Shown here: positions 20,515-48,532 of the stretch, piece after piece
Layout: every line of letters begins with the position of its first letter
How positions within the stretch are numbered: position 1 is the stretch's first letter
Origin: an uncultured candidatus Porisulfidus sp.
GTDB taxonomy: Bacteria > Pseudomonadota > Gammaproteobacteria > Poriferisulfidales > Poriferisulfidaceae
Direction of reading: 5' to 3'
Length of the DNA: 64,000 nt
Assembly (NCBI GenBank): GCA_965116025.1
Contig: OZ220480.1
Coordinates: 1,216,001-1,280,000, forward strand
The notes under the pieces: model-generated
The model's database searches: none
What the model was told of the DNA's origin: nothing
What the model saw: only the letters and a program-made list of their open reading frames with translations
Program-made: the position numbers and the translations under genes

Positions 20515-23500
20515 TCAGAAGCGAACCTTCAGCAGGACGCTCGCGCCGTAATCATGATTGTCGCCGTCCGACGCCGCGTAGTGAGCGTCCCCCGAGAGCG
20601 TCGACTCTCCCTTCTCATCCAAGACCATCACGCCCCCAACGCCCAATCGCGCCCAAGTCGACTCCACCTCCGAGCGAAGCCGCGACCCCGACGCCATGAC
20701 CTTCCGGCTCTCCGAGAACTCGCGCTCCACGTCCAATGAGGCGTACGTCTGGCCATTCTCCAGCAGCGCCCCAACCCGCGCCCGCACGCTGTCCTCCGAG
20801 CGGAACGACACCCGACCGCTCCCAGTGACACCCGACACGTCGTCAAAGCCGTCGATGTCCACCCAAGTCCACGTCAGTCCCCCGCGCGGAACCAGCGCGA
20901 AGCCGTCCCTCTCCATCCGCCTGCCGACCTCCACGCCGATCGCGTGACCCTCTCCATCCAACCCGGACGCCACCATCCCCCGAGTCTCCGAGCTCAGGTC
21001 GACATCCTCGAACCGCGTGTACGAGAGCTCCCCGTCCGCGTACCAGCCGTCCTCGCCCCGCCAAGTCGCCGAGGCGCCCACGCCCACGCCCGAGACCTCG
21101 ATCTTCCCGCCGCGCGCGACGTCCGCCTCGCCGTCCCGGTAATGCGCGCTCACGCCCAGCGTCACGCCCGGCAGATCCGTGGGAACGGCGAAGCCCGTCT
21201 CCACGCCCCAGCGCTCGAAGTCCCAGGATAGCGCGCGACCCGCATCGTCCATCTCGGTCGTGGATATATCCGCTTCCCGCTCGCCGTCGCTCGCCAAAAC
21301 CCGCGCCCACGCGCCCCCGCCATCTCGCGTCGCCGACAGCCGCGCCTGACGACCGTCGGAGCCGCTCATCTCCAGCAGCACCGACGGCAGCGCCTCGTAC
21401 ACCCGAGCCCGGGCGTGGTACGTCCGGCTGATTTCCCTCTCCACGCCCGCCTTGAACTGGTGCCCTCCCGTGATCGACCTCAGCGTGACCATCCGCTCGA
21501 ACACCGCGTCATACACCCCATGCGTCCCCGTCTTACCGGACGTCGCCTTCACCGCGTCCCCCACAGCGATCGCCTTCGTCATGCCCGCCGTCGACTCGCG
21601 CTGGAAGACGTTCGGCGTTTTATCGCCACTATTCAGGAATTTCCCCGTGATGAACGCGACCTGCCCATGCGCGTTCTCCTTCAGGGTGACATGCAGCGCC
21701 TTGTCCGCCCTCACCGCGGTCCCCGACGTCGCGCCGATCTCCGCCTTCGGCCCGATCACCAGCGTCCCGCCGTTCACCATCCGAACGCCGGCGTGCTCGC
21801 CGGCGCCGCCCATCACCTTGCCGTTGATGGTGACCGTCTGGTCGTAGTGACCCTTCCGGGCGTGGTCGGACGCGAACGTCCGCATGCCTTTGACATGCAC
21901 TCCGTCCTTCTTGGCTCGGATCGTCGCCATCTCCCCCACCGTGACGCTGATCTTCCCGGCTTTCGGCGCGTCCTCGTCCTCGTAGGCGGTGGCGGTCTCC
22001 GCGTAGACCCCATACCCATCCGCCGTGATCGCTCCGCCTGAAACATCGATCATGATCGGGATGATCGTCTCAATGTCCGGTATCTCCTCCGCGTCGTTCA
22101 AGTCTCTCACATAGGCGAGAATCCCGTCGCCCTTCGACGTGATGTCCGCCTTCGACTCGATCTCGATCTTCCCGATCTTGGCCTCGTAGGTGGAGGGGGC
22201 TTGAGAGTCGGCCGCCGTCTCGTCGGAAGCCGCCTGGGGCTCCGAGCCCCCATGAATGGCGAGAATGCCGGCGGTCCGGGGCTTCAGGTCCGCCAGCTCC
22301 GTCTTGTGATCCTCCGTGAGCGAGAAGAAGGCGTTAGGCTGGTCGCCCGCGACGATCTCTCCCGCCAGATGCTTCGCGACCACGTCGCCCTGACTGATAT
22401 GCAAAGCGAGGATCCCCGAGCCTTTCGCGTGGATGAAACCCTCGTTGGTGACCATGAGATCAATCTCGTTAGTCGCGTCTTCGGTCTCGACGAACACGCC
22501 GTTCTCGCCGACCGGCGTCTCCGCGGTCCCGATCCGCGCGCCGGACTCGATGTCCACTCGGGTCGTTCCCTCATCGACTTGGTTGCGAACGTACACGCCA
22601 TGGCCGCCAGCCTGAGCGATCACGCCCGCCAGGTCGATTTCGATATCGCCGCCCGCATGATTGGAATAAACATGGATCCCGTGAAGATCCTCCGCCTCCG
22701 TCTTGATCGTTCCCCCGGTCACCTTGACCGTGACCGGAACCACCGAATCGTCGTCCCCTCTCGTGTCGATATAAATGCCATTACTGCGGACGTCAATGTC
22801 GCCGCTCGAGACGATGGCGATCTCGCTGCTCGGAGACGCGGCGGTGCCCATGGTCGAATCCTGATGGAACACGTAAATGCCATGAAAATTGTAGTAATCG
22901 ATATCGCCGTCATACAGCGTGGCCTCTCCGCTCGGGGTGAGCGTTCGCGCGTACAAAGGCCGCTGCCTCAGGCTCCGGATCGTCCCGTGGTTCGTGACGC
23001 GGATGTCCCCTCCCTCTCCACTATTGGACTGATCGACTAAAATCCCCTTACTGGTCACGCTGCCCTTCGCCGTCTCGACGGCGACGTCTCCAGACCCCGC
23101 GTGGTACACGTAGATTCCTCGGTAATACCCGTAGATCTCGCCCCGGTTCACGATCAACATGTCGCCCTCGGCGGACGCGTCTCTGTAATACGCCCACACC
23201 CCATAACGCCCCACCGGAATCTCCTCGGTGCCGATCCGCGCATCAGCCTCGATCGCGATCTCGATCTTGTCCGTTCTCGAGTCCGAGCCGGCTCCGTCGT
23301 TCTCGACGACGATCCCGTAGTTTCTGCTGCCCCGCCGATACTGGGGAGCGATGAAGGTCGCGCTATACTGTTGGCCACCAGAAGAGTACGTGCCCGCCGT
23401 CGTCGTCCACCCCGCCTCGTTCACGATCCTCGCCTTGCCTTCTAGATTGACCGTCAGCTCCCCGCGACCGACCACGGCGATCCCGGAATTTCGGCCTCGG

Positions 23501-23881
23501 GTAAGATCGCTGGGAGAGGTGCCGGGATTCTTGGGAGGAAGGAACGACTTGATGGTCGTCATCTCCCCGGAAGGCCTCACGGTCAGCGCCAGACCGCCCG
23601 TCTGACCCGTGTACTCGATGGGATTGGCATCGGCGTTATTAGTCCCGCCGTAGGTCGCGGCATCGCAGGTGACTGTTTTGGCGGCGCTGACGGCGCCGCA
23701 CTCGTCCGCCTCGGCGGAATGCGGAATCAGCGGAATGGAGAGAACGGCCGTCAAACCGGCCAGAACGGTCAGGAAACGAGGGCTATGCCCCCCCCCCCCC
23801 CCCCCCCCCTATGAGGGAAGACGACGAGGCGCCGCGAAACGCGGCGCGAATGGCATTGGAAGCGGAAAGGATCTTCTTCAT
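20515..23881 (-). CDS. Autotransporter 1 (type Va), frameshifted at a G22 tract (phase OFF as assembled)
   Basis: ATG 23881 gives MKKILSASNAIRAAFRGASSSSLIGGGGGGGA*; removing one G joins it to HSPRFLTVLAGLTAVLSIPLIPHSAEA-DEC (signal peptide) and ORF 20515..23754; Gly/Ile/Val-rich passenger; barrel ending DYGASVLLKVRF. Confidence 0.87.
23788..23809 (-). repeat. Poly-G homopolymer (G22 on the coding strand)
   Basis: 22 consecutive C on the + strand. Confidence 0.95.
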
Positions 23882-44865: not shown

Positions 44866-45031
44866 GCGCGCGCGCTCCGCGAGTCCAAGTCCGCCCAAGC
44901 GCTAGGATAGCAGATACCGCGCGCGGCGGCGAGGCTCGCGCCCCTCATAATAACGGATATGGGGGAGAGGGCGAGGAGTTCCAAGCCTGCCGCGAGCTTC
45001 CGCGAGATTTGGGAGCGCGCCGGCGTGGGTT

Positions 45032-45037
45032 TATAAT
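45032..45037 (+). promoter_or_regulatory. Putative -10 box of autotransporter 2
   Basis: TATAAT upstream of the AGGAGG RBS and ATG 45085. Confidence 0.45.
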
Positions 45038-45084
45038 GCCCGTCTATCTGAACGCTAGGACCTATCCCGTATAGGAGGAGAATA

Positions 45085-48000
45085 ATGACCAAGAACCTTT
45101 CCGTTTTCGAGATTCGCGCCGCGCTTCGCGTCGCCTCGTCGTCTTCCCGCCTAGGGGGGGGGGGGGGGGGGGCATAGCCTCCGTTTCCTGACCGTTCTGG
45201 CCGGATTCACGGCCTTTCTCGCGGTTCCGCACTCCGCCGTCGCGGTGAACGAGTGCGGCGCTACCAGCCCGGTCACCTGCGGCGACGCGAGCTACGGCGG
45301 CAGCAGCGCCACTCCCACTCCCATCGAGTACACGGGTGAGACGGGGGGCCTGACGCTGACCGTGAGGCCTTCGGGAGAGATGACGACCATCAAGTCGTTC
45401 CTTCCTCCCGAGAATCCCGCCACCTCTCCCACCGATATCACCCAGGGCCGGAATTCCGGGATCGCCGTGATCGGCGCCGGGGCGCTGACGGTCCATCTGG
45501 AAAGCAAGGTGCGGATCGTGAACGAGGCCGGTGGGTGGGCTTCGCCCGTCCAGGCCACGTATACCACTGCTGGGCTCAGAGGGACCTTCATTGATCCCGA
45601 GTATGCTCGGGGTAGCAGAAACTACGGGATCTATGTCGGGAACGACCAAGCCGGCGACGCCAACAGAGCGGACAAGATCGAGATCGTGGTCGGGACCGAG
45701 ACAATGATCGGCGCTGATGACGCGCCCGTGGGGCTTTATGGCGTGATGGCGGAATACAGCCAAGATTCCGCTGATGGCGACGTGTCCATCGTGAACCGGG
45801 GCGAGATCTACGGGTACTACCGGGGAATCCACGTGCTTCATAAAGGCTCTGGAGACATCGCCGTCGAGACGGCGAAGGGCAGCGTGACCAGCAAGGGAAT
45901 CAATGTCCGCAACAGATCCGGGAAAGCGGGCGACATCACCATCACGAACCACGGGACGCTCACGAGCCTGAGGCAGTGGCCTCGCTACGCGAGCGCGATC
46001 TCGAGCGGGGTGGCCACGCTCCTTGATAATGACACGATTTTAGCTAGCGGCAACGACTTCACCCAAGACGGCATAAACGTCAACCATGAGGTCACGACCG
46101 CGCCGGCTTCCGGCGAGGATTCCAGCAGCGTGATCACGATCACCTCGAGCGGCGACATCACCGCCCTCAAGCATGCCATGGCCATCAGCACGTGGGGGAG
46201 CGACGATGCTTCGATCGTTCCGGTGATGATCGACGTGACGGGGGGCGTCCTCACGGCGGGCGATCGGAAAAAGACGCGTTATGGAGATGGGGTTTACGTT
46301 TATTCCGTCTACCACAAAGGCGGGCTCATCAAGGTGGACTTCGCCGGTGAGGTCGCCTGGACGGGGAGCGACGGGAAGGGGATCTACGTCTACCGATTCA
46401 GTTCGCCCGATCCCGATCCCGACGACCCGGTCAATCGGGACGTCGAGGTGACGCTGAAATCCGGCGCGCGGATTGGCGTGGACGGGGATGAGCCGACCAT
46501 AGCCAGGCACGGCGTCGAGATTAAGCAGGTCACCAGCGGGGGGACGATAAAGGTAGGCATCTCCGAGGGGGCGAGGATCGGGACCACGGAGACTCCGGTC
46601 GGCGGGTACGGCGCGTTCGCCCAGACCCTCAACTCTGATGACGGGAACGACATGACGATCACCAACGAGGGCTTCGTTCACGCGAGAGGCTCCGGACTGG
46701 TCGCTTGGAACTATGGCTGGGGAAACGCGGTGGTGAAGCACTTGGCGGGTAAGATCGTCGCGGGCGACGCGCCCAACCCGTTCGACGATCTGTTGGATGA
46801 TCACAAGACGGAGCTGGCGGACCTGAAGCCGCGGACGGCCGGCGTCTTCGCTTTCCACGGAGGCTCGAGACCCAAGACGCGCGATGGCGAGACGTTCGAC
46901 GGCAACGACCCCTCCACCTACGATGCCGAGATCGGGGAGATCGAGATCGAGTCGAAAGCGGACATCACGTCGAAGGGGGACGGGATTCTGGCCTACGTGA
47001 AGGACATGCAGGACACTCCGGGGCAGAGTCACGGCGCCGAGATGATCATCCCGATCACGATCAACGCGTCGGGCGGGATGATCACGGCGGACGGGCATGG
47101 GGTGCACGCGGAGACCGCCACCGTCTACGAGGACGAGGACGCGCCGAAAGCCGGGAAGATCAAGGTCACGGTGGGGGAGATGGCGACGATCCGAGCCAAG
47201 AAGGACGGCGTTCACGTCAAGGGCAAGCGGACGTTCGCCGCCAGCCACGCCCGGGCGGGGCAATACGACCAGACGGTCACGATCAACGGCAAGGTGTTGG
47301 GTGGCGACGGAGATTACGCCGGCGTTCGGATGGTGAAGGGCGGAACGCTGGTGGTCGGGCCGAAGGCGAAGGTGGAGGCTGCATCTGGAACCGCGGTGAA
47401 GTCGGACGGGGGGCTGACCATCACCATGAAGAAGGACGCGGTCGGACGCATTGGCTACGTCAAGGGGAAGATGCTCAACAGCGGAACGACGACTTTCGCG
47501 GGGGTGAAGGTGGACGGGGAATACATGCTCAGCCCGGGTCTCGAGACGCGCGGCGTGTACGACGTCTCCAGGGTCACCCTGAAGACGATCGAGGGCGGGC
47601 ACCAGTTCGAGGAATCGGGGCGGGCGTACCATGATCGGGCTCGAGTGTACGAGGCGTTGCCGTCGGTGCTGCTGGAGATGAGCGCTCCGGGCGGTCGTCA
47701 GGCGCGGCTGTCGGCGACGCGTGACGGCGGAGGGGTTTGGGCGCGAGTCATGGCGAGCGATGGCGAGCGCGAGGCGGAGACGTCCACGACGGCGATGGAC
47801 ACGACCGGACATGATTTGTCTTGGGACTTCGAGCGCTGGGGCGTGGAGACGGGCATCGTCGTTCCCACGGACCTGCCGGGCGTGACGCTGGGCGCGAGCG
47901 CGCATTACCGGGATGGCGAGGCGGACGTCAAGCGTGGCGGGAAGATCGATGTCTCGGGCGTGGGCGTCGGGGCTTCGGCGACTTGGCGAGGAGAGGACGG

Positions 48001-48532
48001 CTGGCACGCGGACGGGGAGCTCTCGTACACGCGTTTCGAGGACATTGACTTAAGTTCGGATGCGCGCGGGATGGTGGCGTCCGGTCTGGACGGAGACGGC
48101 CACGCGATCGGCGTGGAGGTCGGCAAGCGAATGGAGATGGACGGCATGACGGTGATCCCTCGTGGTGGGTTGACCTGGTCGTCGGTGGACATTGATGGCT
48201 TCGCCGACGTGTCGGGCGTTATGGGCAGCGGTCGGGTGGAGTCCAGTTCGGAGGACAGCCTCAAGGCGCGGGTCGGGGCGTTGCTGGAGAACGGCCAGAC
48301 GTACGCCTCATTGGACGTGGAGCATGAGCTCTCGGAGGATCGGGAGGTCATGGCGTCGGGAGAGCGCCTGCGCTCGGAGGCGGAATCGACGTGGGCGCGT
48401 TTGGGCGTCGGGGGCGTGATGGTCCTGGACGCGAAGGGGGAGTCGACGCTATCGGCGGACGCGCACTACGCGGCGTCGGGTGGCGATAATCACGATTATG
48501 GCGCGAGCGTCCTGCTGAAGGTTCGCTTCTGA
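45085..48532 (+). CDS. Autotransporter 2 (paralog of AT1), frameshifted at a G19 tract (phase OFF as assembled)
   Basis: AGGAGG RBS, ATG 45085 gives MTKNLSVFEIRAALRVASSSSRLGGGGGGA*; removing one G joins it to HSLRFLTVLAGFTAFLAVPHSAVA-VNEC and ORF 45245..48532; ends DYGASVLLKVRF. Confidence 0.88.
45154..45172 (+). repeat. Poly-G homopolymer (G19)
   Basis: 19 consecutive G. Confidence 0.95.

Follow-up and report, generated by a model that had tools for sequence, protein, structure and literature searches.

AT2 is an autotransporter gene in a stretch of DNA of 64,000 nucleotides (nt) (positions 1,216,001 to 1,280,000 of contig OZ220480.1, assembly GCA_965116025.1; hereafter the window) from an uncultured candidatus Porisulfidus sp. 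The AT2 sequence displays a run of 19 G residues (G19) near its 5′ end which, at the length given in this assembly, puts the gene one base out of frame. The run is likely to be a slipped-strand (simple-sequence-repeat) contingency switch located in the signal-peptide coding region. One mark of such a switch is a repeat whose gain or loss of units changes the reading frame or the promoter, and the AT2 G19 is placed so as to change the frame. The parts of the locus, followed by the paralogous gene AT1 in the same window, are:

45009–45037 (+), sigma-70-like promoter TTGGGA-17-TATAAT, from a consensus scan (10 of 12 positions match)
45073–45080 (+), Shine-Dalgarno sequence AGGAGGAG, 4 nt 5′ of the ATG, read from the sequence; a purine-rich GG motif is at the same place in the alignment of 24 gene copies
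45085–45153 (+), 23-codon leader MTKNLSVFEIRAALRVASSSSRL, the positively charged N-terminal portion of the signal peptide, by translation; the paralogues have homologous leaders
45154–45172 (+), G19 homopolymer, the proposed slippage site, a glycine run if in frame; the paralogues have G16–G27 at the same site
45175–45177 (+), TAG that closes the leader frame at the present run length, by translation
45173–45244 (+), long-frame remainder of the signal peptide, HSLRFLTVLAGFTAFLAVPHSAVA, with the hydrophobic core and the A-x-A site, by translation
45245–47734 (+), passenger domain, a predicted right-handed parallel beta-helix (AlphaFold2 model, VIA-align)
47735–48532 (+), autotransporter beta-barrel domain and stop codon (PF03797, TIGR01414); the protein ends ...KVRF
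20515–23881 (−), AT1: ATG at 23881, G22 at 23809–23788, a 1,089-codon frame, one base out of frame

The Shine-Dalgarno sequence, the ATG at 45085, the G19 and the TAG at 45175–45177 had been described in an earlier note made from the letters of the window, and all four are as read from the sequence. The leader frame from the ATG translates as MTKNLSVFEIRAALRVASSSSRLGGGGGGA and ends at this TAG, which is part of the CATAGCC that follows the run. The long frame lies one base further on and is open from 45176 to 48532 (1,118 codons); its N-terminal end is (H)SLRFLTVLAGFTAFLAVPHSAVA/VNECG, where the slash denotes a cleavage site set by eye, on the basis of an A-x-A motif with the conserved ECG after it. 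The 1,095 amino acid open reading frame (ORF) in the ORF list begins at GTG 45245. The run thus separates the 23-codon leader from the hydrophobic signal-peptide core. Frame bookkeeping shows that the leader and the long frame join only at run lengths divisible by 3, and the claim that a G18 would rejoin the signal peptide to the ORF is therefore arithmetically right. A putative Sec signal peptide, judged by eye, is present only when the two frames are joined. The flanks of the run had been said to be common to AT1, and the same flanks are present there on both sides of the G22.

The two runs are the only G/C runs of at least 10 nt in the window. There are 23 overlapping matches to G10, every one of which is in the AT1 or AT2 run; 100 dinucleotide-preserving shuffles of the window give a mean of 0.25 matches, and 0 of 100 reach 23.

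The proposed switch would operate as follows. The locus would be transcribed from the conserved TATAAT promoter and translated from ATG 45085. With a run length that is a multiple of 3, a short glycine stretch would join the charged leader to the hydrophobic core, a precursor of about 1,140 residues would be exported, and the beta-helix passenger would be displayed by means of the protein's own beta-barrel. At other lengths the ribosome would meet the TAG right after the run, or a TGA five codons on, and no exported protein would be made. Slippage of the replication polymerase would add or drop single G's and flip the gene between states at high frequency. Both the variation in run length between cells and its effect on protein output are points that we infer.

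AT2 is by sequence and model a classical type Va autotransporter, with a PF03797 barrel and a predicted beta-helix passenger. Proteins of this class have a C-terminal translocator domain of 12 beta-strands, a right-handed parallel beta-helix as passenger and a Sec signal peptide at the N-terminal end. PF03797 is found at residues 854–1085 with an E-value of 6.5e-28, over the 26-bit cut-off (3.2e-26 in AT1), and TIGR01414 at residues 841–1118 with an E-value of 2.7e-25. A Pfam scan of AT2 and AT1 (E-value at most 0.01) gives PF03797 only, with no ESPR and no other family. An AlphaFold2 model of AT2 was built on an alignment of 21 paralogues. In the passenger, from residue ~95 to residue 768, the mean predicted local distance difference test score (pLDDT) per 10-residue block is mostly 70–97, with a few dips to 53–69; the barrel part is of low confidence (pLDDT 21–33). 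VIA-align, run on the candidates provided by Foldseek, aligns the passenger with the Bordetella autotransporter Vag8 (Z 19.2, root-mean-square deviation 3.9 Å, 387 residues), with UpaB (Z 16.0) and with pertactin (Z 15.2); phage tailspikes and pectate-lyase-like enzymes also match. Foldseek itself gives no match of the model to the Protein Data Bank (PDB) at an E-value of 0.001 or less, its weak rows being beta-helix proteins, and a profile of the 21 paralogues has 0 matches to PDB sequences at an E-value of at most 0.01. The strong VIA-align scores and the confident passenger model thus indicate that the AT2 passenger is a right-handed parallel beta-helix, which is the usual fold of classical autotransporters.

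The genome from which the window comes is a single contig (2,018,984 bp, 62.7% GC), and a protein search shows it to contain 24 genes of the AT2 family. Twenty paralogues aligned with AT2 are 61%–80% identical to it, and AT1 and AT2 are 62% identical (713 of 1153 columns). All 24 copies have a run of G16–G27 at the homologous site (median 22.5) and an open frame of 889–1,166 codons after it. A genome search for TA-Gn-CATAGCC with n of at least 10, a check proposed in the earlier note, yields 19 exact matches, and the remaining five copies are variants. The alignment of the 5′ regions displays a TAtAAT box some 45 nt 5′ of the ATG (conserved at 60–90% or more per column), the Shine-Dalgarno motif, the TA-Gn-CATAGCC flanks of the run and the hydrophobic core FLTVLAG..., all in common, with unrelated DNA further upstream. 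The leaders of the paralogues are 20–26 codons long and end in ...IRAALR.ASSSSR[ILV], and the signal peptides have the A-x-A site followed by the conserved ECG or GNCG.

In this assembly four of the 24 copies (G24, G21, G21 and A+G17) are in frame with the homologous leader. The frame offset is +1 in nine of the other 20, including AT1 and AT2, and +2 in 11. One in-frame paralogue reads MRATLHFSDTVRAALRGASSSSRV-GGGGGGG-HSLRFLTVLAGFTAVLSIPLIPHPAEA/AATGNCG, i.e. a charged leader, seven glycines, a hydrophobic core and an A-x-A site. By translation, this copy shows the run read as a glycine linker within a long signal peptide. The run length varies between the closest paralogues, e.g. G23 versus G20 at a synonymous divergence (dS) of 0.17.

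Of the 24 copies, 20 have stops in the two wrong frames 0 and 5 codons past the run, and in 22 copies both wrong frames close within 8 codons; in the copies at 545783 and 756392, one wrong frame is open for 40 and 86 codons, respectively. The conserved TA and the first G of the run form a TAG in one alternative upstream frame, and the run can therefore be entered from the leader frame only. A short ATG frame inside the leader is seemingly in frame in AT1 and two other copies; it was rejected as a start since it ends at this TAG with no read-through. The copy at 1011129 has an upstream frame of 49 codons that would be in frame. The copies at 545783–545805 and 756392–756414 of the genome contig have CAATG or CATTG right after the run, and the ATG or TTG in these letters is in frame with the ORF. 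Judging from these letters, translation in the two copies might start just after the run, with the G-run as ribosome-binding site, and would then be independent of run length.

The AT2 locus is also found in short-read contigs from two public sequencing runs of one study. In both of them the summed contig depth at 45108–45243 of the window, the leader and signal-peptide region, is 20- to 100-fold the flanking depth, which fits the sharing of that segment by many paralogues, and perhaps also by many strain variants.

The homopolymer is common to every copy and therefore predates the duplications. This agrees with the earlier note, where it was held that the run is older than the AT1/AT2 duplication; G16–G27 at the homologous site in 24 of 24 paralogues extends the statement to the entire family. 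The same note proposed that the run has been kept for function and is not a sign of decay, and substitution rates bear this out. Among the 276 pairs of the 24 copies, dS is 0.17–0.64, and the ratio of nonsynonymous to synonymous rates (dN/dS; Nei-Gojobori method, NG86) is 0.34–0.68 with a median of 0.50, less than 1 in all 276 pairs. By region, the ratio is 0.18 in the beta-domain and 0.5–0.6 in the passenger. These comparisons show the 24 ORFs to be intact and under purifying selection while bearing the run. The frames are intact and dN/dS is below 1 though only four of the 24 copies are in frame, thus selection has kept the tract-bearing genes over a long divergence.

The median pairwise dS is not uniform along the gene, i.e. 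0.26 in the signal peptide, 0.34 in the beta-domain and 0.86 in the N-terminal passenger. The lower values at the gene ends suggest gene conversion of the ends or mosaic evolution.

The genome as a whole displays a bimodal spectrum of G/C run lengths. Runs of 5, 6, 7 and 8 nt number 2327, 459, 62 and 9, respectively; there are none of 9–14 nt and 45 of 15–39 nt, the longest being a C39 at 97045–97083 of the genome contig. Thirty of these 45 runs serve autotransporter genes. A search of the genome with PF03797 gives 32 matches, which are the 24 family genes, one related gene, six autotransporters rich in fibronectin type III (fn3) domains and one fragment. The six fn3-rich genes (1,256–9,644 codons) have a short ATG leader, a sense-strand poly-C run (C18–C29) and a signal peptide. 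The largest, at 108730–137661 (−) with 9,644 codons, has many fn3, PKD and Calx-beta domains and a barrel, with a C29 located 65 nt in. By their domain content, the fn3-rich genes apparently encode surface proteins with eukaryote-like domains that would be under switch control.

The arrangement of leader, homopolymer and signal peptide is thus present in 30 of 31 autotransporter genes, and by sequence these 30 look switchable. The sole autotransporter gene without a run, at 508081–510720 (−) with 880 codons, is related to the AT2 family; it has an ordinary ATG and the signal peptide MKVSPVLYDAG...APPPVAA/TTCG, and may be a constitutively expressed member. The 24 family frames amount to 26,845 codons and the six fn3-rich genes to 18,330, which together is about 6.7% of the genome (summed by hand). 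The 24 poly-G paralogues and the six poly-C fn3-rich genes would be independent copies of one layout. With 30 independent switches, a cell population would therefore show many combinations of surface proteins, a mosaic of surface types.

The other 15 runs are in or beside genes for a Type ISP restriction-modification enzyme, GmrSD, DUF499, a PAPS-reductase-like protein, a DNA methylase, an RTX protein, glycosyltransferases, an ABC exporter and a few genes without a family. This matches the usual gene mix of contingency loci. Runs at or near 5′ ends are a C15 in the Type ISP restriction-modification gene, a C20 in GmrSD, a G29 in DUF499 and a G22 in the PAPS-reductase-like gene; a G23 lies inside the open frame of the DNA methylase. 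The five loci of defense-type genes with runs are candidates for phase-variable defense, possibly an epigenetic phasevarion, and are located on the genome contig at:

7389–11555 (−)
770748–773795 (−)
1683653–1686295 (+)
968233–969417 (+)
604734–606305 (−)

In a protein search that covered this genome and 30 relatives, the AT2 family turns up in the genome of the window alone. By this search, the 24-fold expansion is specific to that genome among those searched. Distant autotransporters are present in seven of 15 same-genus genomes, one or two in each at most, with a beta-domain identity of 31%–37%. Five such genes, from four same-genus genomes, all have a poly-C run (C12, C13, C14, C14 and C23) that separates a short ATG leader from a signal peptide whose end, A-x-A, is followed by ..ECG, and all five are out of frame in the assemblies. 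Since the same layout is found in these distant autotransporters of the genus, it is older than the 24-fold expansion. All 15 same-genus genomes and six of seven sister-family genomes have G/C runs of at least 12 nt, as against 0 of eight genomes of the two remaining families, which are the smallest of the set (0.9–1.2 Mb). Five genomes that were counted tract by tract have 11–31 runs of at least 12 nt each. A pattern search of genome contigs for relatives of AT2 gave 28 matches, none of which is a relative.

Several observations weigh against a slipped-strand switch in AT2. The contig pieces from the two public sequencing runs break off at 45155, 45161 or 45172 and start again at 45175, none of them bridging the AT2 run; length variation is thus seen only between paralogues (G16–G27). 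Exact-pattern scans of metagenome contigs gave 0 stretches with the leader end, G10, a gap and CATAGCC, and 0 stretches with a 23-base piece of the 3′ flank of the run. The figure of 19 G's comes from an assembly consensus, and since errors are frequent in long homopolymers, the OFF call for AT2 is uncertain. In-frame copies are rarer than the one-third expected at random (4 of 24, binomial P = 0.059). With the five genes of relatives included the figure is 4 of 29 where about 10 are expected (P = 0.016), although these genes are not independent. This deficit could result from counter-selection of ON states, from a bias in calling lengths or from expression that is independent of the DNA frame. 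Runs of 15–39 nt are also much longer than the tracts of 7 or more repeats considered in Campylobacter, and their behavior may therefore differ from the textbook case. Finally, the genome has intact frames for MutS (871 codons) and MutL (583 codons). With both present, the runs are not simply a by-product of lost mismatch repair, and this origin was rejected.

Among other explanations, the one that fares best is that the runs give leaky expression by transcriptional slippage or ribosomal frameshifting, in which case the run would set a low level of protein rather than a heritable ON or OFF state. Polymerase is known to slip on long homopolymers, and the absence of runs of 9–14 nt beside the many of 15–39 nt is in keeping with this explanation, as is the fact that most copies are out of frame yet all are intact, including five of five in the relatives. 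Both orientations occur, however, with poly-G in the AT2 family and poly-C in the fn3-rich autotransporters and the relatives; this fits slippage on DNA, although RNA could slip as well. As a replacement for DNA-level switching leaky expression is unlikely, and the two are compatible and not exclusive of one another.

It is quite improbable that the true AT2 run is in frame and stable and that the frameshift is an assembly artifact. Long homopolymers are indeed hard to size, but a miscount cannot create the run itself, and 20 of 24 copies are out of frame at lengths that range from 16 to 27 and with both offsets represented (+1 in nine, +2 in 11). Similar runs are in addition present in 21 of the 30 relatives' genomes searched.

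Pseudogene decay, in which a reduced symbiont genome is losing the family, with the frameshifts as the earliest lesions, can hardly be the explanation. The out-of-frame state of 20 of 24 copies and the small genome (2.02 Mb) would agree with it. However, no other stop or frameshift is found in any of the 24 frames of 889–1,166 codons, dN/dS is below 1 in every pair, with 0.18 for the beta-domain, and the site of the lesion is invariably the same engineered-looking one, with conserved promoter, Shine-Dalgarno sequence and leader.

In Neisseria, a G-quadruplex associated with pilE promotes gene conversion. Least credible here is a comparable recombination signal, with the G-run mainly promoting gene conversion between paralogues (possibly as a G-quadruplex, from about 15 G's) and frame switching secondary: the shortest long run in the genome is 15 nt and the two gene ends have a lower median dS than the N-terminal passenger, but relatives and fn3-rich autotransporters have sense-strand poly-C, runs also occur in unrelated single-copy genes, and constraint on the sequence could equally give low dS at the ends.

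A slipped-strand switch in the signal peptide thus stays the preferred explanation for AT2. It may be, tentatively, that the system goes further and forms a combinatorial surface coat of an obligate sponge symbiont, with 30 stochastic autotransporter switches and in principle 2^30 states, in which switching at both the DNA and RNA level would exceed classical phase variation and permit escape from host phagocytosis or from phages. The excess of OFF copies would then reflect counter-selection against display of any single protein, and the 15-nt floor would be a selected threshold, e.g. for polymerase slippage or for G-quadruplex formation, rather than an accident of mutation.

Repeat-tract on/off switching of surface proteins is well known from pathogens. 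Among the reports consulted, the PmpG group of Chlamydia comes closest, and it has 2–12 paralogues per genome with poly-G tracts of 8–19 bp and poly-C tracts of 13–24 bp that are variable in length (PMC6740158). Frameshifts occur there at the tracts, the autotransporter domain accumulates no additional mutations, and on/off phase variation is the interpretation given by the authors (PMC6740158). Both are expanded families of type V autotransporters in small host-associated genomes. The main PmpG tracts, as reported, are in the middle of the gene, at about 1,300 nt from its end (PMC6740158), whereas in the AT2 family the run is between the start codon and the hydrophobic core. The present system also has more copies (24 and 6) and belongs to a gammaproteobacterial sponge-symbiont lineage and not to an intracellular pathogen. 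Pmp proteins display the repeat motifs GGA[ILV]/FxxN. Chlam_PMP is not among the Pfam matches of AT2 and AT1 at an E-value of at most 0.01, and beyond the beta-barrel there is no sequence relationship to Chlamydia Pmp.

The closest functional analogue of 24 dispersed and independently switchable copies is the Opa family of Neisseria gonorrhoeae, with about 11 dispersed outer-membrane-protein genes, each switched on its own by a repeat in the leader-peptide coding sequence that breaks or restores the frame (PMC3745409). Combinatorial surface variation is common to both. The Opa genes have a pentamer (CTCTT) repeat (PMC3745409) and encode small beta-barrels, whereas the AT2 family has a homopolymer and encodes autotransporters. 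The Opacity family (an 8-stranded barrel) is likewise not among the Pfam matches of AT2 and AT1, which are to PF03797 only. AT2 is placed outside of the Pmp and Opa families because no such Pfam matches are present. By analogy AT2 would work like Pmp and Opa, and the resemblance to Opa is one of function and not of homology.

Neisseria pilC has a poly-G in the signal-peptide region. NalP and MspA of Neisseria meningitidis are single autotransporters with intragenic homopolymers (PMC3723659); unlike the AT2 family, they are single genes with short tracts and protease-type passengers, and no family expansion is involved. Campylobacter jejuni NCTC11168 has 29 poly-G/C loci, counted as tracts of 7 or more repeats (PMC4965091). 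The C. jejuni phasome is similar in having poly-G/C contingency loci across a small genome, at surface-structure and restriction-modification genes. It differs from the 45 runs described here, which are 15–39 nt long with a gap at 9–14 nt, are at autotransporters in 30 of 45 cases, and are found together with MutS and MutL. The AT2 system differs from known ones in the location of the run inside the signal peptide in every copy, in copy number, in run length and in host lineage. It also differs in the use of poly-G or poly-C in one layout across autotransporter types.

Slipped-strand switching is thus a known mechanism that is new for a sponge-symbiont lineage and unusual here in scale and tract length. 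To our knowledge, what is understood of phase variation by repeat tracts comes almost entirely from human and animal pathogens, and in titles and the openings of abstracts no description of repeat-mediated phase variation in sponge symbionts was found. The present case adds dozens of long poly-G/C tracts in an uncultured lineage, at adhesin-like autotransporters, fn3-rich giants, restriction-modification and defense genes and glycosyltransferases. With respect to how sponge symbionts evade a filter-feeding host and cope with phages, the 30 putatively switchable surface proteins are candidates defined by sequence, and tract length per locus in long reads offers a simple read-out across sponge individuals. 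There is also a consequence for annotation, in that such genes would routinely be called as N-terminally truncated ORFs or as pseudogenes, with the result that secreted proteins are under-counted in these genomes.

Porisulfidus is named among known sponge symbionts in one source (PMC12988363) and is the outgroup to SUP05 in a figure legend of another (PMC9123188). The best named match of the FtsH protein encoded in the window (89% identity) is in a metagenome-assembled genome of an uncultured Candidatus Porisulfidus sp. AT2 is flanked by tpiA, glmM and ftsH on one side and by genes for a metallophosphoesterase and a MOFRL glycerate kinase, purF and cvpA on the other, and AT1 adjoins dnaG and gltB. 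The named Candidatus Porisulfidus relative has the same gene order, but in the position of AT2 it has an ATPase gene (AAA_15/AAA_21/DUF3696) with no tract. This slot, flanked by the metallophosphoesterase gene and ftsH (L055:1897–4000 in this relative), is variable amid conserved housekeeping genes.

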